From Candidatus Amesbacteria bacterium (GTDB taxonomy: Bacteria > Patescibacteriota > Microgenomatia > CAZETR01 > Amesbacteraceae): a stretch of DNA of 64,000 bases. The DNA is taken from NCBI GenBank assembly GCA_027371535.1, contig DAHXMV010000001.1, positions 172,825 through 236,824 on the forward strand, written 5' to 3'. Shown here piece after piece: positions 1 to 46,545 of this stretch. Positions within the stretch are counted from its first letter, which is position 1, and the number at the start of each line of letters is the position of its first letter. The notes beneath the pieces are model-generated. The model was not told where the DNA came from, did no database searches, and was given only the letters and a program-made list of their open reading frames with translations. The translations under genes and the position numbers were made by a program.

Positions 1-152
1 CAGACCGGCTGACAACGGAAACAGAATTTTTCGGAATGGCAGAAAATGATAAATTGTCGGGATTAAATCTGATGTAAATCTCATAGACCACCCCGATCAG
101 ACTAAAAACAGCAATACCCAGAAGGATGAGGGATAACTTATTTAACACGGCG
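1..152 (-). CDS. partial ORF at window edge, hydrophobic protein fragment; extent and start uncertain
   Basis: Minus-strand frame is open from ~152 to beyond coordinate 1 (..VLNKLSLILLGIAVFSLIGVVYEIYIRFNPDNLSF..). The only candidate start is GTG. Fewer than 60 aa are visible. Confidence 0.2.
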
Positions 153-1102: not shown

Positions 1103-2362
1103 TTATCCGAATAAATGAACAAAAAATGCCCTGATTCTATAAAAAATATCCGGATGTTTTGGCGATATTGTAGCTGAAATTACCCCGACTGCGGGTTTGG
1201 CCATAACAGAAACCGGCTTGTACACACCCTTTGGATCAGTAACTAATATTCCCCGGGTATTAACGTCCAGATTTAAATAAGGCAGGGTGACATTTCCGGT
1301 TTTATCTATGAGGTACGACCGGCCCAGCCAGACAGCCGTCAACCCCGGAACCGGCCGGCCCAGATCGTTTTTGACCCGTAACTTTATGTCCCGGGAAGGA
1401 GAATAGAAGCTTTTTAAAACGCCGGCTGCCGGACGGGCCTGACCTGATGTATCCCATAGCTGGGTACTGCCCCCGACACCAACCCAGTAGTTCAATCCCA
1501 AAATTTCCGGGCGGTGCGAAGCCAATACCTGTAAAACCCCATTCAGCCATTCAGCCTGCTGATTTTCAGTCTGATCGCCGGTAACGTCAGGAACGGGAGA
1601 GCCAAACTCACCGACGACAATCCTGCCGCCTGACGACCGGGCTAAATTTTCGATATCCCGGGCATAATCATCAGGGGTGCTGACATAATGATCAATGGTC
1701 ACCACACCATCCAAGCCGGCAGTAGTGGCCGGATCCATAATTAATCTGGCCACGTCGGCGTTCATAGAGGCAAAATTCGAACGGACATTTTTGCGGATTG
1801 AGGCGAAGGCGGCTTTTGTCATCTGATATTCGCTGATTAAAAACTGCCTGAAACCTGCGACATCTCCGGTGTTTCTGGGATCACCGGGTCCCCCATTTTC
1901 ACATTCGGGGCAGGGGGTAAAAATATCGCCGTCAGCAAACAAGCCAGGATTATCCAAAATAAAGGCTTTGGTTTTATCCAGATGTGACTGCCTGGTCATA
2001 GGCGGATAGCCGAACCAGCCTTCCCAACCCGACCAGTTACCCCTAAACCAAACATTCAGACCATGGCTTCTGGCAGCCAAAACCCAGAGTTTCAAGTATG
2101 GCAGAAATTCGGGGTCATAAGGAGTAGCCACAGCCACATGCGTAGCTCCGGCAGAAGCAATTTCGGTGACATGCTCCTGAATAATTCTGACAAAAGCCGG
2201 ATCGTTTAAACCCTGTCCGGCGGCATCGCGGGAGTATTTCATCGTATCCACGGACTGGATTTCCCACCAGGAATTATTTCCGGCGGCCAATACTATCCGG
2301 GGGGAAGAACCAAATAATACCAGAGTCAGGATAAATGAAATAATTAACATCGGAAATTTCAT
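1103..2362 (-). CDS. secreted glycoside hydrolase, clan GH-A TIM-barrel type (GH5/GH26/GH113-like) with C-terminal beta-sandwich region
   Basis: Has a signal peptide. Contains a VVGEFG motif typical of the nucleophile strand of clan GH-A enzymes, and W/G/N-rich TIM-barrel signatures. The family is not resolved. Confidence 0.5.
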   Translation of the reverse strand: MKFPMLIISFILTLVLFGSSPRIVLAAGNNSWWEIQSVDTMKYSRDAAGQGLNDPAFVRIIQEHVTEIASAGATHVAVATPYDPEFLPYLKLWVLAARSHGLNVWFRGNWSGWEGWFGYPPMTRQSHLDKTKAFILDNPGLFADGDIFTPCPECENGGPGDPRNTGDVAGFRQFLISEYQMTKAAFASIRKNVRSNFASMNADVARLIMDPATTAGLDGVVTIDHYVSTPDDYARDIENLARSSGGRIVVGEFGSPVPDVTGDQTENQQAEWLNGVLQVLASHRPEILGLNYWVGVGGSTQLWDTSGQARPAAGVLKSFYSPSRDIKLRVKNDLGRPVPGLTAVWLGRSYLIDKTGNVTLPYLNLDVNTRGILVTDPKGVYKPVSVMAKPAVGVISATISPKHPDIFYRIRAFFVHLFG

Positions 2363-2370
2363 AATTTTGA

Positions 2371-3288
2371 TTAAACTATAGCTTTAATCAACTTTCCGGC
2401 CGCATATTGATAAGCACCGGCCAATTCCGGCCGGCCGGTTAAAAAATAATAAAATGATCTGATCTGCATCCCAAAGATTAAAAAACCGTTAACCAGGCCG
2501 GCGGTATTCCGGTAATGGCGGCGATGAAAATGAAGCAGGCCGTCAAGATTTCGGGTCAGCAAATCCCGGGGGGATAATTTTTTGGTGGTGAAACCGCGCA
2601 GATGAACCACACGCAGGTGCCGGTTGTAGCAAATATTCAGACCGGCGGCCCGGATTCTGTGGCACCATTCCACATCTTCCATAAATAAAAACAACCCCGG
2701 GTCAAAACCACCGGTTTTCTGATAGACCTGTCTTTTTATCAGAAAAAAACTGGTAGAAAACCACTCCAGTCCGGTAACCCAGTGCCGCGGGTAGATCGGC
2801 CGGATAAGGTTTCTGGCCAACGGCAGATTTTCCAAACCCAGAGTCCATAAGACCGTCCTTGGCGGCGTTGGCAAAAAACCCCAGCTGGTCTGAGGGGAAC
2901 CGTCCGGATTTTCCAGTTTCAGACACAGGACATCACAATCCCGATTTTGACTTATGTACTTCAGGGAATTTAAAAGGGTATCTGACTTTACAAATACATC
3001 GGAGTTCAGCAGCAATATGTACGGAGTCCGGGCTCTCTTTAAGGCCAGATTATTACCCCGGGAATAACCGAGATTAGTTTTTTGAGCCAGGATTTTAACC
3101 TGAGGAAACCGGGTTCTGATTAAAGCAACCGTGCCATCAGAGGAATGATTGTCGATAACCAAAACCTGAATCCGGTTACCTAAAGCCCGGCGGCAAACCC
3201 GGACGGATTTTTCCAAATAAGAGAGATACCGGGAGGTAACTGCCCGGGTATTATAAGAAAGGATAATCACAGTTAAATCTGCCGCCAT
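2371..3288 (-). CDS. glycosyltransferase family 2
   Basis: N-terminal LTVIILSYNTRAVT...LVIDNHSSDGT is a GT2 signature. Confidence 0.7.
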   Translation of the reverse strand: MAADLTVIILSYNTRAVTSRYLSYLEKSVRVCRRALGNRIQVLVIDNHSSDGTVALIRTRFPQVKILAQKTNLGYSRGNNLALKRARTPYILLLNSDVFVKSDTLLNSLKYISQNRDCDVLCLKLENPDGSPQTSWGFLPTPPRTVLWTLGLENLPLARNLIRPIYPRHWVTGLEWFSTSFFLIKRQVYQKTGGFDPGLFLFMEDVEWCHRIRAAGLNICYNRHLRVVHLRGFTTKKLSPRDLLTRNLDGLLHFHRRHYRNTAGLVNGFLIFGMQIRSFYYFLTGRPELAGAYQYAAGKLIKAIV

Positions 3289-3290
3289 AA

Positions 3291-4916
3291 TTATTTCTGA
3301 TGAGTAAAAACGGGTTTGGTCTCTAACTGGTTTAAATATTCAGGTTTAAGTTCGTAAATGTCTGCAAAGGGATAGGATTCAACCTTGTTATAACGGGTAA
3401 AACCTTTTGTCCGGCTGACCAGTTTCCAGGTGAGATCGGAGTCGTCGTAGGTGCGCATAATAATCCATCTGGCCCAGCGGTCCGGAATATTTGTGGCAGA
3501 TTCCCAATATAAACCGGTACCCTCATGTATAAAGCGGGACATAGGCAGACCGGAAGAAAAAATTATGGCGTCATGGGAAGCCGCAGATATGAGAATAAAA
3601 CCCGGCTCGTTAGCGGCGTAAGTCTTTAACCAATTCGCCACCTGGGAGACATTTTTCTGACTGCTGCCAACCCGGGCATCATCAATGGTAACAGCGTCAC
3701 CGTTAATAAAAGCAAAAGCCAATACAAATAAAGTCAGACCTACCAAAATCAGACGGAATGATCCGGCTTTATCGATTAAAAAACCCGTAAAAACAGCAAT
3801 CGTGGGGACGAGCATCATGCCATAACGGACATTAAACCAGGTATTTCCGGACAAACCCTGAACGAAAAGAACCGAGTGGCCAAGATACAAAGCCAGAATA
3901 TTGAAAAATAAAGGCGATAAAAGGGCAATAGTGGAAAATCTGACGCCTGAAGAAATCCGGCGGTTGATCCAAAGCGTGACAGCCCCGATCAAACCTAAAA
4001 TCGCCGGAAATGTATAAGTGTTATATAAGAGGGCGTACAGATAAATTTTGGCGGATAAGTACCAATTGTTTTGCGTGAAAAGCACTCCGGCTTTGGCTAA
4101 CTGTTCCTGCTGGGTATGTGCAGAATAGGGTCCGAAAGCAAAATATAACCAGTCTTTAAAAATCAGTTGATTCCAAAACAACCAGATAAGAATTCCCAGG
4201 GCGCCAAGGGTCACAAACAGGAGGACGGAACCCTCGGCGACCTGATAACCCCTTTTTCGGAAACTATGTAAAAACACCAAACCGGTGGCAATTAACAGGA
4301 GAAACCAGCCGTCATAGCGGATGAGGGTGGAGGCCATAATAAAAAAGGCTGACTTGACAAGGTTTAGGACATTGGCATCGTCATGCCATAAAGTCAGATA
4401 GTAACAACCGGCGGTCATGGTGGCTAAAAGCAGCAGTTCGGTCATGGCAGTGGACTGTAAATAAAGCACGTTGAGATTGGCAGAGAAAATCAACACGCCC
4501 ACCAGACGCCCAAGAATTCCGACCTGCAGTTTCTCCAGATATTTGTAAATTAATATTCCGGTGGCAACGAAGGCGATCATTGACTGCAAGGCTCCGGCCA
4601 ATCCGGTATGCCACATAAAATCACTCCAAATAGTCGGTACCATCAAAAGGTGGGTCAGCGGCAGCCAAACGGAACCCAACTGGGCAATCCCGGGTTTTAA
4701 ACCTTCAACTACCCGCCGGCCGATATCCAGATGCGACCGGGCGTCGTTATAAGCCAAAGCCAGACCGTCATTTAAAAAATGCCAATAATAAAGAATGGAA
4801 ACCAGGGATAAACCCAGCATTAAAATTACCAACAGATTTTTACTCAGAAAATCCCGGAAGGTTCTTAACCTTCCGGCCGGGAAATTAAATTTGAGAGAAA
4901 AAGTTTCAGGTGTCAT
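3291..4916 (-). CDS. polytopic membrane glycosyltransferase, GT-C fold-like (PMT/ArnT/DUF2029-like)
   Basis: About 12 predicted TM helices. An early extracytoplasmic loop carries the acidic motif YNDARSHLDIGRR. The C-terminal part is soluble. Confidence 0.45.
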   Translation of the reverse strand: MTPETFSLKFNFPAGRLRTFRDFLSKNLLVILMLGLSLVSILYYWHFLNDGLALAYNDARSHLDIGRRVVEGLKPGIAQLGSVWLPLTHLLMVPTIWSDFMWHTGLAGALQSMIAFVATGILIYKYLEKLQVGILGRLVGVLIFSANLNVLYLQSTAMTELLLLATMTAGCYYLTLWHDDANVLNLVKSAFFIMASTLIRYDGWFLLLIATGLVFLHSFRKRGYQVAEGSVLLFVTLGALGILIWLFWNQLIFKDWLYFAFGPYSAHTQQEQLAKAGVLFTQNNWYLSAKIYLYALLYNTYTFPAILGLIGAVTLWINRRISSGVRFSTIALLSPLFFNILALYLGHSVLFVQGLSGNTWFNVRYGMMLVPTIAVFTGFLIDKAGSFRLILVGLTLFVLAFAFINGDAVTIDDARVGSSQKNVSQVANWLKTYAANEPGFILISAASHDAIIFSSGLPMSRFIHEGTGLYWESATNIPDRWARWIIMRTYDDSDLTWKLVSRTKGFTRYNKVESYPFADIYELKPEYLNQLETKPVFTHQK

Positions 4917-6411
4917 ATTTTAAGTAATCCAGAACATAAAAGGCGGTCAAAAACAGATACAAACCGACGACTAAGAGCAGCTGATAAATAACCGGGCTAA
5001 ACCACCCGGAAAATAAGAGATGATAAACCAGAGAGCTGGTGAAATGGTTTTGCAGCAGCTGAAGATTATACTGATAGGTGTAAGGGATGTGTGTAGACAA
5101 GGCAATTGCTTCCACTTTGGGAGGAACAGCACCGGTAGTTAGAACCCCCAAAGTATTTATATAGATGCTATAAATAAGTAAAACAAAGAAAAGACCGGCA
5201 AATAAAAGCTTTTTTTGATATTTTTTAAGCGCCGGACCGACACCTATACAAGCCGCAGCAGTGGCCGGAATCAGGTAACGGGGACCGAAAGACCAACCCC
5301 CCCATGGATCACCGAACATGGCATAAGAAATAAAATCCACCAAAATAACTGAAAACAGCAGCAGAGAAATATTTTTTAATCGGGGATGCTTTAAAACCAG
5401 CGCGAGGCCTAAAACACCGACTGCCAGTATCGGGCTGTAATAAAACCAACCCCTTTCATTACTAAAAACCAGGATATATACCCCATTAATCAGAGAACGG
5501 GAATTGTAAGCAAAACCGCCCCTTTTTTCAGAGATGGTGACTTCCTGAACCAGCTGGGGATCCAGTGATTTGGTCCGGCCATATATCTGGGCGGGAATCA
5601 GCGGTTGGCCGGTAGTCTGAAAATTGTACCAACAATAAACACCAAATAAGGGTATAAAACCTAAGAACAAGGCCAGAAGCCGAAGATTAATTTTGAATTG
5701 ATAACTGTCGTCCATCTGTATCAGAGAAAAATGTCTGAATAAAACGAATAATTCAATGGGTAATAGCATTAACAGATTCGGAATATCGATTAATAGCCCC
5801 GCACCCAAAAGCAGTCCGATAAAGATATCGTTTTTAACGGATACAGGTTTAGCGGCGAAAAATAAAGTCCCCAAAATTACGGATACGGCGTAGTGATGCT
5901 GAGTGAAAGTCTGTGAATAAGCCAACGCATCAGTGGCAAATAAAAATACCAGACCGGCAATGACCGATCCGATACGGGAAGCCCCGAGTTTCCCAGACAG
6001 GGAATATATCAAATAAACATTCAAGATGGCGAAAACAGCAGTCGTTAAGTAGGTAAACAACTGCGGAGCGCGAAGCAGATTCCCCAGCAAATACATGGGC
6101 ACACCTAAAAAGGAAACCCCGGGAGTAAAAATAGAATAATACTTCCCATTTTTACCCGCCAGATCAGGCAGGGAAAAAGCGGCTTCATCACGATCTAAAA
6201 ATATTCTGTGATCTTCTGCCAGAGCTTCTGTCAGGGCATAACGCGAAGTACTGTTGCTGGACTCAAACGGTCCGCCGACAGAAGTATTTTTATCATATTG
6301 AAAAACCAGCCGGTGATTGATTATCTGTCCCTTGACGACCAAGGCCAGAAAGACCAGGACCAGACCTATGGTAATAATGCCCGGCAATAATTTAAGCAAT
6401 TTTTTTATCAT
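4906..6411 (-). CDS. ArnT/PMT-like (GT39/GT83 family) membrane glycosyltransferase
   Basis: Multi-TM protein. The first loop carries DRDEAAFS, a DE-type motif of GT-C enzymes. Overall layout matches 4-amino-arabinose and dolichyl-P-mannose transferase families. Confidence 0.55.
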   Translation of the reverse strand: MIKKLLKLLPGIITIGLVLVFLALVVKGQIINHRLVFQYDKNTSVGGPFESSNSTSRYALTEALAEDHRIFLDRDEAAFSLPDLAGKNGKYYSIFTPGVSFLGVPMYLLGNLLRAPQLFTYLTTAVFAILNVYLIYSLSGKLGASRIGSVIAGLVFLFATDALAYSQTFTQHHYAVSVILGTLFFAAKPVSVKNDIFIGLLLGAGLLIDIPNLLMLLPIELFVLFRHFSLIQMDDSYQFKINLRLLALFLGFIPLFGVYCWYNFQTTGQPLIPAQIYGRTKSLDPQLVQEVTISEKRGGFAYNSRSLINGVYILVFSNERGWFYYSPILAVGVLGLALVLKHPRLKNISLLLFSVILVDFISYAMFGDPWGGWSFGPRYLIPATAAACIGVGPALKKYQKKLLFAGLFFVLLIYSIYINTLGVLTTGAVPPKVEAIALSTHIPYTYQYNLQLLQNHFTSSLVYHLLFSGWFSPVIYQLLLVVGLYLFLTAFYVLDYLKYDT

Positions 6412-7307
6412 TTGATTTTTTTGGTTGATTTATAGATTTTCCACATCGGGGTATAAGCAGGTGAAAAAGCGGTATAAATTAAAGATAACAAAACCAGAGC
6501 CACATAAGTAACAAAGTAGAGAGGTTGGGATAAAAAGCTGCTCCAAATAATGGAAATGGCTTTGGATATATCCAGCCTCATCGAATAAATAGTCGAGTAT
6601 GAAGTTTCTTTTTGCCTGGCTTTATGAAATTTGGAACTTTGAGCCAGAAAGTCACACAGGTTGTCAACTGATTTATAAATTATAGCTGCGGAGTCGCTTT
6701 TTACCAAAGGCAGACCGGACATGATAGCCCGGCGATAGCAGTATGAATCTTCATGTAAATCTTCCTGCCAGCGAAAATGCTTTAAAAAGTTCCGTGAAAA
6801 TAATCTGGCCCCGGTATATAGGTAAAGATTCGGAGCCGACATGGCAAATTTGAAAATATTTATTCTCAGAGAGAATCCAAAATTGATAATCCGGTTAAAC
6901 CAATTCACGGGCGGAGCCGGATAAGTCTGGCTGACTACCAGACTGAATTTACGGGATGATGGGACCGACCTGACTAAATGATGGATAAAATAGCGATCTT
7001 TCGGCAATGTATCGGCTTCGAGAATCAGCAAATAATCAGTTTTGCCGGGAAGGTGATCCAAAATTTCATTCAGTCTGGCATTTTCTCCCAGACGCCGGCG
7101 ACCGGAAATCAACGTGACTAAAGGATGATGCAAACCGGCAACTTCAGAGTCCGTATTATCATCCGAATGATCAGAGATAACCAAAACCTTAAGCAAGCGA
7201 AAATTATCCTGCTTCTGTGAAAGCAGACTTTTTAACAGCCGGCGGATATTCCCCTCTTCATTGAAGGCGGGTATTCCGATAGTGACAAACGGCAGATTAA
7301 CTGACAT
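6408..7307 (-). CDS. glycosyltransferase family 2 (polyprenyl-phosphate sugar synthase-like) with C-terminal TM segments
   Basis: FVTIGIPAFNEEGNI...VLVISDHSDDNTD is a GT2 signature. The C-terminal hydrophobic helices resemble GtrB/ArnC/DPM-synthase architecture. Confidence 0.65.
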   Translation of the reverse strand: MSVNLPFVTIGIPAFNEEGNIRRLLKSLLSQKQDNFRLLKVLVISDHSDDNTDSEVAGLHHPLVTLISGRRRLGENARLNEILDHLPGKTDYLLILEADTLPKDRYFIHHLVRSVPSSRKFSLVVSQTYPAPPVNWFNRIINFGFSLRINIFKFAMSAPNLYLYTGARLFSRNFLKHFRWQEDLHEDSYCYRRAIMSGLPLVKSDSAAIIYKSVDNLCDFLAQSSKFHKARQKETSYSTIYSMRLDISKAISIIWSSFLSQPLYFVTYVALVLLSLIYTAFSPAYTPMWKIYKSTKKIK

Positions 7308-8088
7308 AACGATTATTCCTGGACAAATAATATATTTCTTTCATTTGGGGTATATGGCCGTCTTTAAAGATGGCACGGACCTGGCTTTTATATCCTTTGA
7401 TGAGCTTGTTTTTATTTTCGGACCGTACCGGAAATTCATATTTTTTATAATCCGAAAATCTGGAATCCTTGTCGGATGATGTTAATAAGTATGGGAAGTC
7501 AGACCAGAAAATGGTTTTTGGGAAGATGAGTGAGCTGACCTTATGAACGATCACGTGATCCACATGATTACCGTTTCCCAAAGGAGAAAAGACATAATTT
7601 TTCCCCGGACTGATGATTTGGCGCAATCTCCGTCCGATTTTATCCATCAGGCTGTAATCGTTTTCAGAAATTTTGCCCCTGATCACGTGCCAGCGGTAAG
7701 TGGGGTAGATATGAATTAACTCCGGAATCAGAGGCCCAAGCCATTGGCTAACCGGATTTAATTTTTCCTTTTTTCGCCATGAACTGTCAATAAAATCCAG
7801 ATTAATCACCCGGCAGCCGATGGCCCGGAGCGTAGTTTCGTCTTCACTGATCCGGTCCCGGAATAATTTTTGCGGGTCACGGTAACCACACTGACGGAGA
7901 AACTGACGGGCAGATAAAGTGGGGGTATGGCTGTCTACTTTGGTGAACACGTTAATAATGGTCACCGGGACGTGTTTCTTACGTAATCTGTAAATCAGCG
8001 AACCTGCCGACAGGACGGCGTCATCAAGATGCGGAGAAATAAAATAACAGGGAGTTTTAGCAGTGATTAGTTTAAGCAGACGTTCCAT
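7297..8088 (-). CDS. PIG-L/LmbE family N-acetylglucosaminyl deacetylase
   Basis: ISPHLDDAVLSAGSL matches the (A/S)PHxDD zinc-binding motif of the LmbE/PIG-L family. The start is uncertain (either 8121 or 8088). Confidence 0.7.
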   Translation of the reverse strand: MERLLKLITAKTPCYFISPHLDDAVLSAGSLIYRLRKKHVPVTIINVFTKVDSHTPTLSARQFLRQCGYRDPQKLFRDRISEDETTLRAIGCRVINLDFIDSSWRKKEKLNPVSQWLGPLIPELIHIYPTYRWHVIRGKISENDYSLMDKIGRRLRQIISPGKNYVFSPLGNGNHVDHVIVHKVSSLIFPKTIFWSDFPYLLTSSDKDSRFSDYKKYEFPVRSENKNKLIKGYKSQVRAIFKDGHIPQMKEIYYLSRNNRYVS

Positions 8089-9208
8089 AATTTTTCTGTA
8101 CGGACGATAAGTAAACAGCATAACTATTTATGATCTGATTCCAGCTGAAATTTTTTGCAAATTTCCTGCCTTTTTGGGCTAAAACTTTCGACTGACGGGG
8201 GTTGTTTAATATATTTTGGATATGACGACTCAATGCGTGGACATCAAAACAGGCGGTTTTCAGACAACAATCAGCCGGCACCCATTTAAGGCCGTCGATA
8301 TCAAAAGTCACCAAAGGTTTTTGATAGGCCAAAACTTCCAAGGCAGCGAAGGAAAATGTTTCAAAACGGGATGGTACTACCACCAAATCAGCCGAAACAA
8401 ACAAAGCAAATTTTTCCCGCCCAGTTACTCTGCCAGGCAGGATTACCCTGTCAGAAAGACCCAGCCTGCCAATCATTAATTTCAGAGCACTGACTTCGGC
8501 AGCCGTACCTGAGCCGGCAATTACCAACCTACCTGAATATCCGGGCAACAGCAGTGAATACGCCCGAAGCAATAAATCCAAACCTTTCTGATTTATTTCA
8601 ATCCGACCGATAAATAAAATATAGTTACCGGAAACCGGCTTTTTAGGTAACACCGGGATATCTATACCGTTGGGAATTACTTGAATCTTGGATCCGGGGG
8701 TTTTGGAGTGTACTAACTGACGGATCTGATCACTAGTGACGTGAATATAAGAATAGGTTTTAAGGCCTAAATTTTCGGCCAGTTTAAACGGCAGATGGTA
8801 CTTGCGCTGCATATCTTCACCAGCCAACATATGGACGCTGCCGATAACCGGTTTATTGGTAAAAAGTGGCAGACAGGTAGTAGAAAACGGAGGGGTAAAA
8901 CTTTCCAACCAGATATCGAAGGGTAATCTGAAAATCAGGCTTATAAGTGACAACTGGTAGGCTAACTGACCCAGTTTAGGACCAAAATTACCGCTACCTA
9001 CATATCGATATTCAACCCCATCGATTCTTTCATTCAGACAGCCGGGATATTTACCGGCCATAACCAGCACCCGGAAACCCATTTTCTGCAAACCGGTGGC
9101 AATTTTGAGAACAGCAAAAGCCCCGCCTCCGGCATAGTACGGGTTTTTCGGGCTATCATAATTACTGATAACCAGGCGGGTTTGATGATCAGTCTGCGGG
9201 TGCATACC
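8072..9208 (-). CDS. glycosyltransferase family 4 (GT-B, group 1)
   Basis: The N-terminus contains a YYAGGG donor-binding motif. The C-terminal GT-B domain is similar to GT4 enzymes. The start is probably MHPQ. It overlaps the 3' end of the upstream giant gene by a few codons. Confidence 0.65.
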   Translation of the reverse strand, partial: GMHPQTDHQTRLVISNYDSPKNPYYAGGGAFAVLKIATGLQKMGFRVLVMAGKYPGCLNERIDGVEYRYVGSGNFGPKLGQLAYQLSLISLIFRLPFDIWLESFTPPFSTTCLPLFTNKPVIGSVHMLAGEDMQRKYHLPFKLAENLGLKTYSYIHVTSDQIRQLVHSKTPGSKIQVIPNGIDIPVLPKKPVSGNYILFIGRIEINQKGLDLLLRAYSLLLPGYSGRLVIAGSGTAAEVSALKLMIGRLGLSDRVILPGRVTGREKFALFVSADLVVVPSRFETFSFAALEVLAYQKPLVTFDIDGLKWVPADCCLKTACFDVHALSRHIQNILNNPRQSKVLAQKGRKFAKNFSWNQIINSYAVYLSSVQKNYGTSA

Positions 9209-12200
9209 AGCTTTGGGTTTGGGGCAGTTGGGTTTGAGAATTAAGACTAGATTCAATCACGGATATAAACTGGTCGGCTTTGGAATTCCAGTCGAACAAG
9301 CGCGACCAAGTCAGAGCTGCCCGGGAAAACCTAGTGAGGTTATCAGTATTTTTCACCAGATCTAGCATGACCCGGGTTAAAAATTCTATATTTTTAACCG
9401 GAACCAAAACACCCGTCCGGCCGGAGGCTACAGAGTCACGCAAACCACCCACATCTGAAGCAATCACCGGAGTGCCACAGGCATTAGCTTCAATCACGGT
9501 GATACCCCAGCCCTCAAAGGAAGAAGGCTGAAGCATGGCCCAACCCCTGCCCAGAAGTTCGCTTTTTTGTTTTTCACTGACTCTTTGGGTAAATATCACG
9601 GATTTACCAAGATGCAGTTTGGCGGCCAGGGCCCGCAGATTATCCAAATTTTCACCCCAGCCGGAAATGAAAAACCTGGCTGCAGGATAACTTTTTACCA
9701 CCACGGCAAAGGCTTTGATGGCAACATCGATATTTTTATACGGCCTGAGGCGCCCCAAATAGATGAAAGAAGGGTAGGGGGTCTTTGGACAGGGGTGAAA
9801 CATATCCGGATCAATGCCGGGATTTACTACAGAAATATCCTGAGCAGGAGCCAAACCCAGGTCAACAATATCAGTTTTGGAGGATTCGGAAACGGTGAGC
9901 ACCTGATGATGTTTATAAACCAATGGCATCACCTTCGATTCCAAAAACACAGCCAGCGAGGAAAGAGGAAATGCCAGATGTTCACGAAAAACATTCTGGT
10001 GGATATGGTGGATTAACAGAAAAACAGGCAGACGTGAATATATGGGGGTAAAAAACGGAATCCCGTTTTCACAGTCTATAATAACATCAAATTGACCCCT
10101 GAATTTAAGGAAATAATAGATGACAGCCCAGATATAGACCGTAAAGAAACCACCACGCCGGATTATCCGGACGCCATTTTTAATCTCATTCCTCCGGGAC
10201 TTACCGTCGTTCCCGCAAAAAACAGTCACCTGATAACCCTGACTGACCCAACGCTTTGACATCTCCTGGATATAAACTTCCGCACCGCCAGCCCAGACAT
10301 GTCCGGTATCCCGCCAGTTAAAAATTAACAAGCGGAGTTTTTGGGAATTGTAAATCTGATTATCAGGCAAGCCCCGGAACAAGCCTGTAAAATCCGCAAA
10401 ATTACGGATTAAATTCTTTATCTGGTCATAATACAGGTGCCCAAGGCCAACCAGAAACAGATAAAAAATGCTGTAGTAAAACATGGCATAAACAAAAGCC
10501 GTCAAATTGTTTTTGGCAGAGTATAAAAAGAGCACCTGTACGGGCGAGGTTATGACACTTAAATAACTAAAAATATACTGATGGCGGATTTGGTAGTAAT
10601 TGACAATATTACTGGCGATAGTAAAAGCCACCATAGCCAATGTAAACCACGGTAATAAACCGGAAAGAGGCAATATTTTGCTACCAAAAAGAAGGGGGGC
10701 GGTTATCTTACCGAAAACTCCGAAAACCACTGATACTGCCAGAGAAACAAGAGTAGTCACCAACAAAATCCGATAGAAAATCTGTTTGGAATTTTTTCCG
10801 GCCCCCTCTGCCCGGCTGACCAGGGGGGTAATAAACTGGGAAAAAGTCCCGCCGGCAAAATAAACCATTTTCCCGACCAGGGAAATCAGGGCATACTGAC
10901 CTGCCTGGACGGGGTTTAAAAACATTTTGGCAAAGACGATATCCAGACTCAAAAAAGACAGGGCTGAAATTCTGACCAAAAGAGAGGAAGCAAAAAATTT
11001 CCGGGGAAAATGGGTAACTGCAGCTTTATCCGGCAAGGGAGCTGAAGTTTTAAGAGTCCGAGCTGCCAGCCAGGTAAACAAAAAGGGAAACGAGGAGGCC
11101 AGGGGGATAGCTGCATAAACCAGATTGTTCCATCCTAAATGGATAAACAACATGGTCAGCAGGAATTTAATGACTGATTCCGAAACGGTAGCTACAGCCA
11201 GAATAGTAAACCGCGTATTGCCAGCTAAAAATCCGCCGTCAACTGCCGATAAAGTGCCGATAATCCATACAGGAGAAAATAATATAAAAGGAAATGCCGA
11301 ATGACTGCCGAAAACTGCCGGTAACCAGGGAGACAAAATTAACCAAAGCGCGGTTATAACCAGTGATAAACGAAAAACATTTTCCCTGATGTAGGCCCAA
11401 AATTGTTTAGGTATCAGGTTAAACCGGCCGAACAGAAAACCGCTTCTGTAGGTCACTGTCCTGGCCAAAGCACCGGCCGGAATTTCCAGCAAATTGTAAA
11501 AACTGCCCATCAGGCTGATAATCCCGAAGTCCGAAAGAGTGATTCCCGGGCTATGACTTAAAAAGGCATTGTATAAGAAATTGAAAAAATTACTGAAGAC
11601 CGAGGATGCTATCAAGGCTCCGGCTCCCAGGTTCTGGCGGGAAAAAAGCGATTTAACGGAGGTAAAATTAAAAGCCAATTCCGGGGTGAGAACGATATGT
11701 TCCGGGACAGTTTTGGGGTCCAAATTAATACCGTGGTGGGTTTTTTCCCAATAATGAGGTTTTACTACCAACTGATATACAGCCTTGACAGCGGCAAAAC
11801 TGATCATCAACCAATAAAACGGCACCAGATAAATATATTTCACCAGGTCCCAGCGGTCCCTTTTGGCGCAGCCAATCATGTAGTTATAAAAGAACATAAA
11901 GTTACCGATAACAGCCGAGAAAACAGCCATATAGAAAATTATCGGAGGATAGATAGCTTCGATTTGGGGTCCGACATACCGGTAGAGGGTAAAGTAGGCG
12001 ATAGTTGTCAACCAGAGGAAAGGATTAATAACCATAAAGGTGATACGCAAGCCGATGACCAGTTGAAAAATCAGAGCATGGATTCCGTGTTTTTTCAGAA
12101 AAGCCAAGGGGTGGCGGTTGTGGACCAAAAAAGTCTGGATGTAGCCTTTGATCCAGCGTGAACGCTGCCGGATCCAACTGGCCAGATTCCCGTTGGCTTC

Positions 12201-13814
12201 CTCGAGGGTGGTGGAATCAATCATGGCTGTCTGGAATCCGTTTTTGAATAAGCGGGCGCCCAAATCGCAATCTTCAGTGACATTGAAAGCATCCCAACCG
12301 TGGAGGGATTTCAAGACCCGGGTACGAAAATGGTTGGAGGTTCCGCCCAACGGGATAGTGGTATTAATTGATTGCAGTCCGGGCAACACCACGTCAAACC
12401 AAAGTGAATATTCAGCGGTGAACAAACGGGTAAGCAAGTTTCGGCCGGGGTTGTAAAAATTCAATTTTCCCTGCAGACAGGCCACTTTTTGTGGCGAGTT
12501 CAGAAAACCCAGATAAGCTTTTTTCAGCTGCAACGGATCCGGTTGGTCTTCGGCATCATAAACAACCACATACTCCCCCCTGACAAAGTTCAGGCCGTAA
12601 TTACAGGCTTTGGGTTTAGTTTTAGGTTGCGAATCGGGGACGATAATCGTCCTGATATATGAAGGCAATCCATAATTTTGGGCAGCGGTGATTGTGGCCT
12701 GATCATCAGCTTCCAAAAGCAGTATCACATCCAATTTATTTTTCGGCCAATCGACTCCGGTGATGGAATCTACAAAAGCCGGCAGCACACCCGCTTCCCG
12801 GTATAGAGGACACAGAATGCTATAAACAGGCAAATCCACACGGTCCAGTGAGGCCAAATCAGAGTCCGAAAAGGTTAATTCCGGCGGGAAATGCAAACTT
12901 TTCAGGACTATATACAGACTGAACAGGGTATCCAACAAATAAATTGAGGTCAGAATGGCTGTCAAAAAAATGGCAGTATTTAACGGGGTGAAATAAAAAC
13001 CTAAAAGAACTAATAACAAACAAACCAACAATCCGGCTTTCTGCCAAGGGTAGAGTGTAGGAACGGCGGAGTCTGACAGAGGCAGACGGGTATGGGTCAC
13101 AAAGCGATGTTTTTTGTGGACAATACCCGAACCGATATTATTTTCCGGGTACGGACCATTGATCGCAAAAAGTGATGGGGTATGGATTTTGGTCTTCAAG
13201 ACAGCGGTAAAATGCTGCCATGCTGAGATCTCTTCCCGATTGGCGGGGATGTCCTGGAAAACTTCAGCCACGGAATATCCAAGCTGTATGGCAGTATGCA
13301 GAAGCCAAATGTCAATGTCATTTTTACCAAGTTTTCCAAGAGGCAAATAATCTACTAAAACCCGGGGAAGAATCTTTAGGCCGGAATTGACATCATACTG
13401 AATACCCAACAAAGTCCTGGTCAGTGAATTATGAATGCGGGAGAATCTACTATTTTTGCGGCTGGCGATAATAACCTGATTCTCGGGCAGTAAATCCAGC
13501 ATCCGGGTAAAAACATCACGACTAAAAGGGGTGTTTTCGTCATAATAAGCTATAAATTCAGCCTGAGACGCGGACATTCCGTCTAACAAGGATTGGGTTT
13601 TACCATCCCGGCTGGTCTGAATAATCTTTATAGGATAATCTTTGGATAGTTTTTCCAGCGATCGTTGGTTATTTATTACTCCCCGTTCAAGTGCCAGGAT
13701 AAAAGTATACGAAATCCGGACATGATTCAGAACCTGCTGAAATTGATCTAATAGCGGGATAAGAGATCCCGATTTCCGGTTAATCCGGATAATAATATCC
13801 AGGTTATCTTTCAT
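9189..13814 (-). CDS. 1541-aa multidomain polysaccharide synthase fusion: N-terminal GT2-like domain, processive GT2 domain (DAED, TED, QRSRW motifs) with TM bundle, Wzx/MATE-like polysaccharide flippase-like TM region, C-terminal GT4 domain
   Basis: A single uninterrupted ORF. Residues ~330-560 carry PVYSILCPLYRE..YDAEDQ..TEDCDLG..QRSRWIKG, the hallmarks of cellulose/chitin/hyaluronan-synthase-like GT2. Residues ~700-1150 are about 12 TM helices. The C-terminus carries EGWGITVIEANACGTPVIASDVGG, a GT4 E-x7-E region. Confidence 0.7.
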   Translation of the reverse strand: MKDNLDIIIRINRKSGSLIPLLDQFQQVLNHVRISYTFILALERGVINNQRSLEKLSKDYPIKIIQTSRDGKTQSLLDGMSASQAEFIAYYDENTPFSRDVFTRMLDLLPENQVIIASRKNSRFSRIHNSLTRTLLGIQYDVNSGLKILPRVLVDYLPLGKLGKNDIDIWLLHTAIQLGYSVAEVFQDIPANREEISAWQHFTAVLKTKIHTPSLFAINGPYPENNIGSGIVHKKHRFVTHTRLPLSDSAVPTLYPWQKAGLLVCLLLVLLGFYFTPLNTAIFLTAILTSIYLLDTLFSLYIVLKSLHFPPELTFSDSDLASLDRVDLPVYSILCPLYREAGVLPAFVDSITGVDWPKNKLDVILLLEADDQATITAAQNYGLPSYIRTIIVPDSQPKTKPKACNYGLNFVRGEYVVVYDAEDQPDPLQLKKAYLGFLNSPQKVACLQGKLNFYNPGRNLLTRLFTAEYSLWFDVVLPGLQSINTTIPLGGTSNHFRTRVLKSLHGWDAFNVTEDCDLGARLFKNGFQTAMIDSTTLEEANGNLASWIRQRSRWIKGYIQTFLVHNRHPLAFLKKHGIHALIFQLVIGLRITFMVINPFLWLTTIAYFTLYRYVGPQIEAIYPPIIFYMAVFSAVIGNFMFFYNYMIGCAKRDRWDLVKYIYLVPFYWLMISFAAVKAVYQLVVKPHYWEKTHHGINLDPKTVPEHIVLTPELAFNFTSVKSLFSRQNLGAGALIASSVFSNFFNFLYNAFLSHSPGITLSDFGIISLMGSFYNLLEIPAGALARTVTYRSGFLFGRFNLIPKQFWAYIRENVFRLSLVITALWLILSPWLPAVFGSHSAFPFILFSPVWIIGTLSAVDGGFLAGNTRFTILAVATVSESVIKFLLTMLFIHLGWNNLVYAAIPLASSFPFLFTWLAARTLKTSAPLPDKAAVTHFPRKFFASSLLVRISALSFLSLDIVFAKMFLNPVQAGQYALISLVGKMVYFAGGTFSQFITPLVSRAEGAGKNSKQIFYRILLVTTLVSLAVSVVFGVFGKITAPLLFGSKILPLSGLLPWFTLAMVAFTIASNIVNYYQIRHQYIFSYLSVITSPVQVLFLYSAKNNLTAFVYAMFYYSIFYLFLVGLGHLYYDQIKNLIRNFADFTGLFRGLPDNQIYNSQKLRLLIFNWRDTGHVWAGGAEVYIQEMSKRWVSQGYQVTVFCGNDGKSRRNEIKNGVRIIRRGGFFTVYIWAVIYYFLKFRGQFDVIIDCENGIPFFTPIYSRLPVFLLIHHIHQNVFREHLAFPLSSLAVFLESKVMPLVYKHHQVLTVSESSKTDIVDLGLAPAQDISVVNPGIDPDMFHPCPKTPYPSFIYLGRLRPYKNIDVAIKAFAVVVKSYPAARFFISGWGENLDNLRALAAKLHLGKSVIFTQRVSEKQKSELLGRGWAMLQPSSFEGWGITVIEANACGTPVIASDVGGLRDSVASGRTGVLVPVKNIEFLTRVMLDLVKNTDNLTRFSRAALTWSRLFDWNSKADQFISVIESSLNSQTQLPQTQSWYAPAD

Positions 13815-13835
13815 AATTAGTATTAAAAAAATAAC

Positions 13836-13868
13836 CCTAGAGGGTTACTAACTATAGGATTATACCTT
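13836..13868 (-). promoter_or_regulatory. putative promoter (-10 TATAAT on minus strand at 13858-13863) plus 6-bp-arm palindrome AACCCT-AG-AGGGTT just upstream of the giant glycosyltransferase gene start
   Basis: Read directly: ggattatacc gives TATAAT on the minus strand. The palindrome sits at 13836-13849, between the -10 element and the ATG at 13814. Confidence 0.3.
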
Positions 13869-13884
13869 ATTAATAAGAAAAATT

Positions 13885-14265
13885 CTAGCCGAAGTTAAAT
13901 GAGAAGAATGTGAGAATTGTGGCAGACCCAAAAATTCCCATACTATCGATTAAAATATCCCTGACCCGGCCATCACGACCAGACACAAAAGTTTGGTGAA
14001 ATTCATCGGATGAAGCGTAAATCAGCCCGATGGCTATCAGCAGAATAATAATGCTTTTTTTAGTCAAATTTGTTGTCCGGTGCAGAGAAAAATATAACAG
14101 ACATCCCAGGATGAAATACTCGGTAACATGGGCACATTTTTTAATCAAGAAGTCCTGCCATGCGACCGGGGAGACATGCAAGGGGGGCCGGGAAGAAAAA
14201 CCGAAAATCACTACCATCCAAAATAGTGTGGGTAACCAATAATATACCCGGGGTAACGGTTTCAT
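13885..14265 (-). CDS. VanZ-like family membrane protein
   Basis: Four TM helices. The motif string CAHVTEYFILGCLLY ... SSDEFHQTFVSGRDGRVRDILIDSMG matches VanZ-like conservation. Confidence 0.6.
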   Translation of the reverse strand: MKPLPRVYYWLPTLFWMVVIFGFSSRPPLHVSPVAWQDFLIKKCAHVTEYFILGCLLYFSLHRTTNLTKKSIIILLIAIGLIYASSDEFHQTFVSGRDGRVRDILIDSMGIFGSATILTFFSFNFG

Positions 14266-15116
14266 GGCAAAGAAATTTTACTAGATTTTTTGAGTAAAAG
14301 GTAAGCGGAGATGATCATAACAAAACCGCCTAAGGCCATCAGAGCAATACCGGGTAACCGGGACGGGGAGGCCAGTTGATCTTCGGCTACCGAGAGATCC
14401 AACGCCGGGACGGCTGTTACCGAAACAGAAAGTATATTGGCGGCTAATACAGAGGAGGGTGTGGCTGCCGGAGCGGATAGAGGAGGATCGGCAATCGGAG
14501 AAGCAGCTGCAGACTGAACGGGGAAAAACGGGGTTAAGGTTGGTCTGAGGGTGGGTTTGGCAGTGGGCTGGGGAGTAATTCTGGGGGTAGGCGGAACAGA
14601 AGTGGATGTGGTTTTAGGAACGGGAACGGGAGTAGCGGTGGGCACAGGGGTGACTGTGGGGGGCGGACCGGAGAGGGAAATTGCGACAGGATCAGACCAT
14701 AAGGCCGGACTATTATCCGAGGTATAACGGCCGACTTTGAAAAAGTAGTCTCCCGGTCCGGAAAAATATTTGTCTGACGGGTCCGGTTTGACGTCCAGAC
14801 TGAGGCTGGCTACGGGTGAAGATTTGTCTATGGGGGCCAGATGAAAGTATCGGGTGGCAAGTGAACCGGGTGAATTTATCCATTCGCCCCCGTTATTTTT
14901 TGTGAATCCGAAATAATTTGTAGATTTAGGTGTATAAAATACCGCCCGGAGATAAGAGTCACCACAACCGGCAGGACAGGAAAGACTAATCTCAACCGGA
15001 AATTGACTATTTAAATCCGCCGAGGCCGGACATCCGGTGAAAGTCAGGGTAATAGCCGCTCGAATTGGGGAAAAAGATAATAAAAAGAAGACCGGACAAA
15101 TCTTCCACCAGCTCAT
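14262..15116 (-). CDS. secreted Pro/Thr-rich cell-surface protein with C-terminal hydrophobic anchor
   Basis: Has a signal peptide. A PT-rich linker is present (PPPTVTPVPTATPVPVPKTTSTSVPPTPRITPQPTAKPT). The C-terminus is SRLPGIALMALGGFVMIISAYLLL + KKSSK. Confidence 0.55.
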   Translation of the reverse strand: MSWWKICPVFFLLSFSPIRAAITLTFTGCPASADLNSQFPVEISLSCPAGCGDSYLRAVFYTPKSTNYFGFTKNNGGEWINSPGSLATRYFHLAPIDKSSPVASLSLDVKPDPSDKYFSGPGDYFFKVGRYTSDNSPALWSDPVAISLSGPPPTVTPVPTATPVPVPKTTSTSVPPTPRITPQPTAKPTLRPTLTPFFPVQSAAASPIADPPLSAPAATPSSVLAANILSVSVTAVPALDLSVAEDQLASPSRLPGIALMALGGFVMIISAYLLLKKSSKISLP

Positions 15117-15120
15117 GATG

Positions 15121-16287
15121 TCAGGACTTGATATAAGTGGAAACGGATATGATGCTGGAGGTGGAATAATGGTCGGAAAATTTCAGATCCGGCCCGAACC
15201 AGGGATCGTTCATAATATAATCCGGGCCGTTTTTAGACTTTATAACAATGAAATGCTCCGAACCGTTGGCGAATTTCAGACCGATAATTACCGGACGTCC
15301 CGCAGCCAGTTCGGAATCCACCAGTGAAAGATTACGGCCGTTATAGACTGTAAATTTAAATCCGGGTTGAGACGGCCACGGAATCCACATCAGATCCTGG
15401 AAAAAATAACTGGTATTGGAAGCAATATCAGCCGGGGTGACATTCATGCCATTTTTCTTTTGTAACATCGCCACACTGGTAATCAGGCATCCATACTGCC
15501 ATACCAGGCTGGGATTTTTTGATCCACAAGTGGTACCGATACAGGCACCGCCCCAGCGCTGGTCACGCTGGTTCATATACCAACCGTCGGGACTGGATTG
15601 AGGTGGCAAAAGACCCCCGCCTTCGGTAAACAAAGCCAGAGCGTTTCGCTGGGCTATGGCTTCATTCAGAAGTTTTTGGTAATTGGCTTCGTCGTTTTTG
15701 GTTTGTTTTAAGAGGAGGTCCTTTTGAGCCCGGAGGCTATCCAGATCAGCTTTCTGGAACTGCAGACGCTTTTTTGATGATTCGATCAGGTCCTTCTGCT
15801 GGGCATAATTTGTCTGAATAAGCTGAGTATCGTGAAGCATTTTCCGACTGGAGCTCTGGGTCTCCTGGGCATATTTAAAATGGTCCAACATCTGTGAAAA
15901 ATTATCAGATGAAAAAATCAGTTCAATAGGATCTATCTTCTCCTGCTTATAGGTGGCTACGATCTGCTTTTGCAAATATTCCACCCGCTGTTCCAGTTTG
16001 GTTTCCAAAACGTCTATTTTTTGGGATATAACGGAGATCAGATCCGTTGTCTGAGCGATTTTTAACTGGTTTAAAGTAATCTGATTGTCATAATAAGTAA
16101 TCTGACCTCCCAGAGTTTTGGCATTGCCCTGGGCCGTAGCAATTTTTTGATTAAGATCATCGATTAACTGCTGACACTCAGTCTGCTTGTCAGGCTGGTT
16201 GCAAACATCGGTCTGATCCGCGCGGACATAAGGCGCCAGGCAGAAATAGCACAAGATAAACAGTGAAAAACCTAATAATTTTTTCAT
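15121..16287 (-). CDS. PcsB/EnvC-like divisome peptidoglycan hydrolase: signal peptide, long coiled-coil, C-terminal papain-like cysteine peptidase (CHAP/C39-like) domain
   Basis: Heptad-rich region spans residues ~30-210. The C-terminal domain has a candidate catalytic Cys (WGGACIGTTCGS..YGCLITSVAML) and His (GSEHFIVIK). It lies immediately downstream of ftsEX. Confidence 0.55.
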   Translation of the reverse strand: MKKLLGFSLFILCYFCLAPYVRADQTDVCNQPDKQTECQQLIDDLNQKIATAQGNAKTLGGQITYYDNQITLNQLKIAQTTDLISVISQKIDVLETKLEQRVEYLQKQIVATYKQEKIDPIELIFSSDNFSQMLDHFKYAQETQSSSRKMLHDTQLIQTNYAQQKDLIESSKKRLQFQKADLDSLRAQKDLLLKQTKNDEANYQKLLNEAIAQRNALALFTEGGGLLPPQSSPDGWYMNQRDQRWGGACIGTTCGSKNPSLVWQYGCLITSVAMLQKKNGMNVTPADIASNTSYFFQDLMWIPWPSQPGFKFTVYNGRNLSLVDSELAAGRPVIIGLKFANGSEHFIVIKSKNGPDYIMNDPWFGPDLKFSDHYSTSSIISVSTYIKS

Positions 16288-46362: not shown

Positions 46363-46545
46363 GGGAAAAATAGGGGTTGTTAGTTTTCTGGCTTTAACAG
46401 TTGCGGCACAGCCGGGGAATTTCGCCCCGATTCCTTAAACACAACCTGTAGAGTTACTATAAATAAATCTAAGTTATTGTCAATAATTGTTAATTGGGAA
46501 ATAGAAATGACTAGGCCACTATACATGCAGAACGGTTGAGAAGTA

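Follow-up and report, generated by a model that had tools for sequence, protein, structure and literature searches.

The stretch of DNA analysed here, referred to as the window, comprises 64,000 nucleotides (nt) of a Candidatus Amesbacteria genome (contig DAHXMV010000001.1, positions 172,825 to 236,824), a member of the Microgenomates within the Candidate Phyla Radiation (CPR), and contains a cluster of glycosyltransferase (GT) genes close to its left edge. Eight consecutive open reading frames (ORFs) occupy positions 1103-13814, all on the minus strand. In the direction of transcription, they encode a four-module fusion protein (9189-13814), a stand-alone GT4 enzyme (8072-9205), a PIG-L/LmbE-family de-N-acetylase (7297-8121), a GT2 enzyme that we call GT2b (6408-7307), two membrane proteins that we call P5 (4906-6411) and P4 (3291-4916), a second GT2 enzyme, GT2a (2371-3288), and a secreted protein, SEC (1103-2362). 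A preliminary description of the region had given the number of genes as nine; its own list also comes to eight. Pfam bears out its giant multi-GT fusion, its GT2 at 2371-3288 (PF00535, E = 4.4e-18), its LmbE deacetylase (PF02585, E = 1.1e-12), and its GT4 (Glycos_transf_1 and Glyco_transf_4 matches). The junctions are tight, with five overlaps (17 nt between the fusion and GT4, counted from the publicly called ATG of the GT4 gene at 9205, 50 nt between GT4 and PIG-L, 11 nt between PIG-L and GT2b, 4 nt between GT2b and P5, and 11 nt between P5 and P4) and two gaps (2 nt between P4 and GT2a and 8 nt between GT2a and SEC), an arrangement that is compatible with an operon. The closest relatives of the genome are Candidatus Amesbacteria, in which P4 is 70% identical, and these relatives also have GT2a between P4 and SEC and a surface protein bearing an fn3 domain.

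The first gene encodes a protein of 1541 residues with Pfam matches to both GT2 and GT4 families, and its modules were defined with aligned orthologues from related loci. From the N terminus, these are a DPMS-like GT2, a BcsA-like processive GT2, a Wzx/MOP-like flippase, and a GT4. Searched against the PDB, the family profile of module 1 (residues 1-235; 13110-13814) matches DPMS (5mlz, E = 1.7e-29), ArnC (1.4e-24), and GtrB (2.6e-24), with the next protein at 1e-10. In the window, DDxSxD is replaced by LALERG and DxDLQYP by YDENTPF, the F..R..G.SK motif is missing, and the module is 26% identical to its orthologues, compared with 42% among the orthologues themselves. Modules 2-4 have no comparable excess divergence in this genome. 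We conclude from these sequence comparisons that module 1 is probably decayed, or else strongly diverged, in this genome. Module 1 is present in 12 of the 16 fusions with a complete N terminus and missing from the other four; an example of an intact copy lies at 691-1443 of L060.

Module 2 of the fusion (residues 236-735; 11610-13109) is a membrane-embedded, BcsA-like GT2. Its profile matches BcsA in the PDB (7lby, E = 1.1e-19; 4hg6, E = 7.5e-12), and its NCBIfam matches include CelA (1.4e-20) and PgaC (1.9e-16). The motifs LLEADD (from residue 366), DAED (420-423), TED (513-515), and QRSRW (550-554), which are of the D, DxD, TED, QxxRW type, are intact in the window and invariant in nine orthologues, and transmembrane (TM) segments flank the domain on both sides (254-300 and 578-679). 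Module 2 is thus predicted to be a processive membrane GT2 synthase of the BcsA/HAS/NodC type. A Pfam scan found no PilZ domain in the fusion. Module 3 (residues 736-1155; 10350-11609) has multiple predicted TM segments, and three of nine orthologues match PF01943 (Polysacc_synt), with a best E value of 3.7e-9; no sequence match to it was found in the PDB. The possibility that module 3 is a third GT-C enzyme was rejected, as its hhalign probability is below 1% against both P4 and P5. Module 4 (residues 1156-1541; 9189-10349) is an MshA/PimA-like retaining GT-B enzyme of family GT4, matching Glycos_transf_1 with an E value of 1.6e-38 and MshA (3c4q) with an E value of 1.6e-14.

The products of the fifth and sixth genes, P5 and P4, are polytopic GT-C-fold proteins. 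For each of them the first 21 matches are all GT-C-fold proteins, and those of P5 include ALG12 (21.5), ArnT (21.2), and GPI-MT-I (17.6). P4 has ~13 TM helices and a C-terminal extracytoplasmic α/β domain, while P5 belongs to a divergent PMT_2/ArnT-like branch. Both follow a common plan, in which a basic N terminus leads into the first TM helix and a loop bearing invariant acidic residues comes next. In P4 this loop carries the invariant pattern Y-N-D58-A-R-S-H...E71; across 28 sequences D58 and E71 never vary and D64 reaches at least 90% conservation, and the motif Y-x-D-A...AQLG.VWLPL is still present in very distant relatives in which P4 is fused to other domains. In P5 the loop contains invariant E50, R57, and D83, with E50 and D83 conserved across 29 sequences. 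The two GT-C-like membrane proteins named in the preliminary description, and the putative catalytic loops on which that assignment depended, are therefore present, while the 'DE' loop motif that it had noted in P5 did not hold up, with neither E66-D67 nor D75-E76 among the invariant columns.

Searches with P4, P5, and SEC returned no Pfam match, even at E = 10, and no PDB sequence match, even with family profiles. P4 has no match to a curated Pfam or NCBIfam family, and its more than 2000 close homologues include none with a Pfam domain; P5 has a sub-threshold NCBIfam match to the LA_3751/LA_3752 putative glycosyltransferases. PMT_2 is matched by 16 of 29 P5 homologues, weakly by 2 of 28 close P4 homologues, and at ~1e-7 by distant fused P4 relatives. 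The P4 sequence is 62-80% identical across Ames-, Gottesman-, Levy-, Woese-, and Beckwithbacteria, which is unusually high conservation across candidate phyla. Because profile-profile comparison links P4 and P5 with an hhalign probability of only 17%, we treated them as two separate GT-C families. We rejected an identity as GT39 PMT for P5, since there are no matches to PMT (PF02366) or MIR domains in P4 or P5 and the loop-1 'DE' is not conserved, and we rejected an oligosaccharyltransferase (STT3/AglB/PglB) identity, as neither protein has a WWDxG motif.

SEC consists of a signal peptide, a ~300-residue domain resembling clan GH-A glycoside hydrolases (GH), and a C-terminal CarboxypepD_reg-like Ig domain; CarboxypepD_reg is matched by 19 of 26 members of this family, which has ~2000 homologues. 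The C-terminal half of P0372, a fused P4 relative, shares 44% identity with SEC (E = 8e-86), and the hydrolase part of P0372 matches Pfam Glyco_hydro_cc with 26.2 bits, above the cutoff of 21; two of 26 SEC homologues also match Glyco_hydro_cc weakly. The invariant residues E155, H225-Y226, E252, and W293 are compatible with a GH-A pattern, a (β/α)8 barrel in which the two catalytic glutamates would lie on strands 4 and 7. Of the earlier label of a secreted clan GH-A hydrolase, the secretion is thus borne out by the signal peptide, and the GH-A part comes by way of the fused homologue and the residue pattern.

Downstream of SEC and 83 nt from it (1020-1102), a minus-strand gene (138-1019) encodes a protein with a signal peptide, an N-terminal domain of ~110 residues, a short Pro/Thr (PT) linker, an fn3 domain (E = 7.8e-12), the motif LAGTG (nt 231-245), a TM helix (265-283), and a basic tail, KSSRRVK. 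Its N-terminal domain has four invariant cysteines and no Pfam match, and the residues invariant in the family are C34, C76, C78, C133, and L259-A260-x-T262-G263. Of 60 homologues, 57 carry the LAxTG motif, with a TM helix and a basic tail behind it, and the 40 residues before the motif form a low-complexity linker that averages 59% S/T/G/P/D/N; fn3 is optional (4 of 20 homologues). Class E sortases prefer the motif LAxTG. The next gene, which overlaps the 3′ end of this one, leaves the window after its first 49 codons (1-148, minus strand), and their translation matches the N terminus of the PF04203 sortase encoded at 14769-15308 of one related locus (L001). The sorting signal and the cognate sortase together identify the product of 138-1019, as judged from sequence, as a putative sortase-anchored surface protein.

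Relatives of P4 were scanned across one genome per GTDB species, and ~80 loci were fetched for synteny. At least 366 species-level genomes have a close relative of P4, and all 80 fetched genomes appear to be Microgenomates-type CPR. The conserved order is fusion, a variable cassette of GT and sugar-modifying genes, P5, P4, SEC, LAxTG protein, and sortase: P5 immediately precedes P4 in 70/78 loci, SEC comes downstream of P4 in 71/79, 138-1019 has a homologue in the same position in 53/70, a sortase follows in 53/70, and the fusion is found no more than 10 kb upstream in at least 46/62. The recurrence of this gene order across the fetched genomes places the co-occurrence clearly beyond chance. 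Since the synteny extends to the LAxTG protein and the sortase, the module reaches past the left edge given in the preliminary description, and the conserved unit runs from the start of the fusion (13814) to the sortase, beyond position 1. P4 (~63% identity) and the synthase module (~60%) are the most conserved parts, with P5, SEC, the GT4 module, and the flippase module at 35-49%. Many of the metagenome-assembled genome (MAG) and third-party annotation (TPA) records that carry the locus are titled 'uncultured Gammaproteobacteria', 'Candidatus Bathyarchaeia archaeon', or 'Candidatus Eisenbacteria' (for example, L008, L011, L013, L025, and L031); these are probably mislabelled or mis-binned CPR contigs. 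Insertions also occur: in L006 a HEPN/nucleotidyltransferase (toxin-antitoxin-like) gene pair (11622-12307) lies between P4 and SEC, and in L005 the sortase gene is closely followed by a DDE transposase and a truncated deformylase.

The interval between the fusion and P5 varies among loci. It can contain GT2 and GT4 enzymes, PIG-L or Polysacc_deac_1 deacetylases, a DegT aminotransferase, epimerases or dehydratases, hexapeptide or GNAT acetyltransferases, a methyltransferase, and an APH-type kinase. The locus therefore has a conserved core and a variable cassette, resembling surface-polysaccharide loci. The stand-alone GT4, whose public gene call gives 377 residues starting at ATG 9205 rather than TTG 9256, is an accessory, variable component found in 34/62 loci, and PIG-L is likewise accessory, being present in only 12/62. 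That low frequency led us to reject GT4 and PIG-L as the core of a GPI (glycosylphosphatidylinositol)- or mycothiol-like pathway. Enzymes like GT2b have at least one labelled copy in 59/62 loci, with up to six per locus, and appear to behave as ordinary glycan-elongating enzymes.

Neither stand-alone GT2 specifically resembles the GtrB/ArnC-type enzymes that make polyprenyl-phosphate sugars. GT2b (PF00535, E = 1.3e-14) has the single C-terminal TM helix (259-277) that had been noted before, together with a GtrB/ArnC-like label that is not supported: its family profile best matches PcManGT (6yv7, E = 3.8e-15), which we take to be a minimal cellulose-synthase-like fold, GtrB and DPMS align with it only across the N-terminal, nucleotide-binding half, and the single sequence matches GtrB with an E value of 0.7. 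As the profile does not separate GtrB from generic GT2s, a GtrB/ArnC-like identity was rejected as a specific assignment. A GtrB-like identity was also rejected for GT2a, a soluble accessory enzyme with no predicted TM segment whose best solved matches are generic GT2s (5tze/5tz8, E = 7e-8); among loci from other genomes, GT2a is the best label at its position only in L007 and a secondary label in four more. On sequence grounds, the genuine DPMS/ArnC/GtrB-type module appears to be the N terminus of the fusion and not a stand-alone GT2. The preliminary description had proposed two pairs, each consisting of a GT2 that makes a polyprenyl-phosphate sugar and a GT-C enzyme that transfers it; the stand-alone GT2s are not these synthases.

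Gene fusions in relatives tie several of these proteins to a shared pathway. A profile search with the P4 family against 1.84 billion cluster representatives yielded 2675 P4-family representatives. Among the long ones, P0363 is a fusion of P5 and P4, and P0372 and P0381 join P4 to a SEC-like domain (with a CarboxypepD_reg-like tail). P0371 and P0376 combine a P4-like protein with a Pfam GH5 (Cellulase) domain, and P0378 has a C-terminal part that is GH5-like by eye, with no Pfam match. P0465 consists of a BcsA-like GT2, a P4-like protein, and GH113, P0459 of a BcsA-like GT2 and a P4-like protein, and P0414 of these same two parts preceded by an intact DPMS-like GT2. The gene for P0414 is immediately followed on its contig by a GtrA_DPMS_TM gene, so that the two would complete a textbook GtrB/GtrA/GT-C set around a synthase. 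This arrangement is seen on a contig that does not look CPR-like (L089, 3931-8930), where a 1471-residue protein with an intact DPMS-like GT2 and with BcsA-like GT2 and P4-like GT-C parts is followed by a GtrA_DPMS_TM gene and then by a 1630-residue PQQ-repeat protein. Neighbouring cassette genes are also often fused, in combinations that include GT2b+GT4+P5, GT2b+Polysacc_deac_1+P5, APH kinase+deacetylase+P5, PIG-L+GNAT, and DegT+GT2b (L060, 6307-9951; L061, 6658-9975; L030, 6553-9933; L017, 6500-8329; L044, 2839-4902; L062, 3231-5228). The fusions of P4 to BcsA-like synthases and GH-A hydrolases make a polysaccharide at least as likely an acceptor as a protein.

The GT-C fold and the conserved acidic loops of P4 and P5 make it very likely, by analogy with GtrB/GT-C systems, that glycosyl groups are transferred outside the membrane from lipid-linked donors. 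This aspect of the preliminary description is supported, and its two-pairs scheme is not. Beyond this, our preferred interpretation, which we offer tentatively, is that the locus encodes an assembly line for a Microgenomates cell-envelope glycopolymer, akin to the multi-component transmembrane glycosylation of Gram-positive bacteria. What the analysis yields directly is the fold and family of each part, the intact synthase motifs, the conserved GT-C loops, the synteny, and the gene fusions; from these we infer the substrates, sugars, acceptor, and order of steps. In this model, the BcsA-like module would polymerise and export a conserved backbone glycan. On the cytoplasmic face, the GT4 module of the fusion and the cassette enzymes (GT4, PIG-L, GT2b, and GT2a) would build a sugar or short oligosaccharide on polyprenyl phosphate, normally started by the DPMS/GtrB-type module. 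The Wzx-like module would flip this lipid-linked unit across the membrane, where P5 and P4 would attach it to the growing polymer or to some other acceptor in the envelope. SEC could then trim or release the polymer, and the product would reside in the wall beside the LAxTG protein anchored by the adjacent sortase. That P4 and the synthase are the most conserved components, together with the synthase-GT-C-hydrolase fusions, suggests a conserved backbone with variable decoration.

Several observations weigh against this interpretation. The DPMS-like module in the window has no DDxSxD, DxD, or R..G.SK motif, and no other DPMS-like GT2 was found across the 64-kb window, so that with this module decayed another enzyme would have to substitute for it. 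Two labels are borrowed from relatives: module 3 of the window has no Pfam match of its own, its Wzx label coming through orthologues, and SEC has no direct family match, its GH-A label coming through homologues. Loop 1 in the model of P4 has low confidence, with a predicted local distance difference test (pLDDT) score below 50 at residues 59-82. Because neighbouring cassette genes are fused freely, fusions prove a shared pathway and not donor-acceptor pairs. Finally, the linkage to the LAxTG protein and sortase is tight, and this protein could be the acceptor instead.

A bolder version of the assembly-line model, which we regard as quite improbable, holds that P4 founds a new GT-C family that is an obligate partner of the BcsA-like synthase and the GH-A hydrolase and couples a wall glycan to an envelope anchor, possibly the neighbouring LAxTG protein. 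If true, this would represent a proteoglycan-like route of wall polymer attachment in CPR, unlike the LCP-ligase route of other monoderm bacteria. Neither an LCP ligase nor a phosphoglycosyl transferase was found in the five annotated loci in which they were sought.

The alternative that survives best is protein O-glycosylation, which we consider unlikely. Here, P5 and/or P4 would use polyprenyl-phosphate sugars to glycosylate the S/T/P/G-rich linkers of the LAxTG protein and other secreted proteins, much as actinobacterial PMT or streptococcal GtrB with PgtC2 does, with the rest of the locus supplying donors. The synteny of the LAxTG protein and sortase in 53/70 genomes favours this idea, as do the composition of the 40 residues that precede the sorting motif (59% S/T/G/P/D/N on average) and the PMT_2 matches of P5 relatives. 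There is also precedent, as a streptococcal GtrB and GT-C enzyme glucosylate Ser/Thr-rich disordered regions (PMC12041528). However, the fusion of P4-family proteins to GH5, GH113, and Glyco_hydro_cc hydrolases and to BcsA-like synthases points to a polysaccharide, and protein glycosylation would not need the BcsA-like synthase at the core of the locus or a secreted hydrolase-like protein. The lack of PMT (PF02366) and MIR matches and of a conserved loop-1 'DE' also speaks against it. Protein O-glycosylation is compatible with the assembly-line model, as the acceptors of P5 and P4 could differ.

Rather more doubtful is an en bloc pathway of the Wzx/Wzy or oligosaccharyltransferase type, in which the cassette GTs would build an oligosaccharide repeat on polyprenyl diphosphate and the Wzx-like module would flip it, with P5 and P4 serving as polymerase and ligase or oligosaccharyltransferase and moving whole units to a polymer, a lipid, or a protein. 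Repeat-unit pathways do have a likeness in the variable multi-GT cassette and the Wzx-like module, and two GT-C enzymes recall the polymerase/ligase pair of the lactococcal polysaccharide pellicle (PSP). However, none of the five annotated loci encodes an initiating phosphoglycosyl transferase of the Bac_transf or MraY/WecA type, P4 and P5 have no WWDxG motif, and the family-level presence of a DPMS/GtrB-type module, with GtrA beside the fused relative, favours monophosphate-linked donors. A lipoglycan, or a glycolipid of the GPI or phosphatidylinositol mannoside/lipomannan (PIM/LM) kind, made by GT4 and PIG-L as a GlcN-lipid anchor that is flipped and then extended outside the membrane by GT-C enzymes with polyprenyl-phosphate sugars, is very improbable: the combination of GT4, PIG-L, DPMS-like GT2, and GT-C mirrors the enzyme set PIG-A, PIG-L, DPM1, and PIG-M of the GPI-type pathway, and the GT4 modules resemble MshA and PimA, but the frequencies of PIG-L (12/62) and stand-alone GT4 (34/62) mark these as accessory chemistry, and the BcsA-like synthase, the hydrolase, and the sortase linkage would be left unexplained.

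Upstream of the fusion, a 70-nt gap (13815-13884) separates it from a VanZ gene on the same strand. This leader contains TATAAT (13859-13864), followed by a 6-8-bp hairpin (13830-13849) and a T-run that ends ~10 nt (10-15 nt) before the ATG of the fusion. The preliminary description had placed a putative promoter with a palindrome at 13836-13868. The palindrome is real, with the scan flagging the hairpin and T-run as terminator-like and not as a sigma-70 promoter; no acceptable -35 box was detected, and the region shows no excess of promoter-like sites (23, where 28.5 would be expected). The element could serve to terminate the upstream unit, act as a leader structure, or do both. Another locus, L082, has the same order of -10-like box, hairpin, and T-run upstream of its fusion gene (~1495-1597), and in the window (13820-13864) and L082, which come from unrelated genomes, a TATAAT-like box is followed by ~9 nt, a GC hairpin, and a T-run. 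Terminator-like hairpins also precede the fusion gene in L012 and L013. From its sequence, the arrangement shared by the window and L082 is possibly a leader/attenuator or an overlap of terminator and promoter.

The minus strand continues on both flanks of 1103-13814. On the downstream side lie the fn3-containing protein and the sortase gene described above. On the upstream side are VanZ, a PT-rich TM-anchored protein, PcsB-like, FtsX, FtsE, an unannotated 159-residue ORF, an FtsJ-like methyltransferase, and a release factor with PCRF and RF-1 domains. FtsE (17155-17832), FtsX (16284-17180), and the PcsB-like protein (15121-16287), which combines a coiled coil with a C39_2-like peptidase, form a cell-division hydrolase module (15121-17832, minus strand), followed by the PT-rich protein and then VanZ; L082 likewise has a PcsB-like gene ahead of its fusion gene. 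The PT-rich protein (14262-15116, minus strand) has a signal peptide, a ~70-residue Pro/Thr-rich stretch, and a C-terminal TM anchor, and does not have an LAxTG motif. Together with 138-1019, it had been put forward as a flanking surface protein and candidate substrate. Only 138-1019 is truly linked to the locus (syntenic in 53/70); in the other loci whose sequence extends upstream of the fusion, neither the 14262-15116 protein nor VanZ was found there. Elsewhere in the window, an AdoCbl-II (cobalamin) riboswitch (46374-46447, minus strand; 44.3 bits versus a gathering score of 36.5) lies immediately upstream of a minus-strand ORF (45307-46362).

Among described systems, the nearest by analogy appears to be the lactococcal PSP, with the streptococcal GacI-L system also close and with GacI-L and CsbB/GtcA/YfhO sharing its logic. 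In lactococci, WpsA/B make C55-P-GlcNAc, the cytoplasmic GTs WpsC-F elongate it, and the Wzx-type WpsG flips the product, after which GT-C enzymes polymerise the flipped unit and attach it to rhamnan (PMC10821137). The lactococcal dual-chain rhamnose-containing cell wall polysaccharide (Rha-CWPS)/PSP system (WpsA/B, WpsC-F, WpsG, WpsH/I, and WpsJ) and the CPR locus both have a conserved core beside a variable cassette, with cytoplasmic GTs that differ between strains, and more than one extracytoplasmic GT-C enzyme. On the assembly-line model they would also have in common a GtrB-type initiating GT2 that acts on polyprenyl monophosphate, a Wzx-type flippase, and a backbone polymer that is made separately and serves as the acceptor. 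They differ in that the lactococcal backbone comes from an ABC-transporter rhamnan pathway and would here come from the BcsA-like synthase, that the initiator, synthase, flippase, and GT4 are here fused in one 1541-residue protein, that the GT-C enzymes are of different, partly unannotated families, and that the module includes a GH-A-like hydrolase, an LAxTG protein, and a sortase and occurs in a CPR host.

Other known systems share parts of this architecture. The GtrA/GtrB/Gtr*, CsbB/GtcA/YfhO, and GacI/J/K/L systems follow the same proposed logic of a DPMS/GtrB-type GT2, a flippase, and a GT-C enzyme, and a fused P4 relative adjoins GtrA; in contrast to these three- and four-component systems, the window has a degenerate GtrB-type module, a putative flippase that is Wzx-like and part of the fusion, and two GT-C enzymes, all set among a processive synthase and many additional GTs. 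Bacterial cellulose synthesis by BcsA with BcsZ resembles the locus in the processive GT2 motifs D, DxD, TED, and QxxRW with flanking TM segments and in a dedicated secreted glycoside-hydrolase-like partner, and the clostridial CcsA with the GH5 enzyme CcsZ is an example of a synthase-dependent exopolysaccharide system. Unlike in Bcs systems, no PilZ or BcsB-like partner was detected here, the synthase is fused to three further modules, and GT-C partners, which are not part of known Bcs systems, are present. In streptococci, GtrB and the GT-C enzyme PgtC2 use polyprenyl-phosphate hexose to modify Ser/Thr-rich extracytoplasmic linkers (PMC12041528). As in that pair and the actinobacterial PMT systems, an S/T/G/P-rich linker protein is encoded beside the CPR locus; in contrast to them, the locus has no PMT/MIR match, and fusions and synteny tie P4 to polysaccharide enzymes.

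A search of the full-text literature found no description of this CPR locus. Its logic is known, and what is new, as far as the literature was searched, is its architecture, the unannotated GT-C family, the association of synthase, GT-C enzyme, and hydrolase, and the linkage to a sortase. Fusions in both CPR and non-CPR-like contigs suggest that a processive GT2, a GT-C enzyme, and a GH-A hydrolase constitute a previously undescribed functional triad, and the locus extends the reach of multi-component transmembrane glycosylation systems. Its conserved core and hypervariable GT cassette resemble a surface-antigen or phage-receptor locus. CPR bacteria, or Patescibacteria, account for a large and mostly uncultured part of bacterial diversity, and their surface mediates an episymbiotic lifestyle; the locus provides a concrete genetic handle on a probable lineage-wide CPR envelope glycopolymer.

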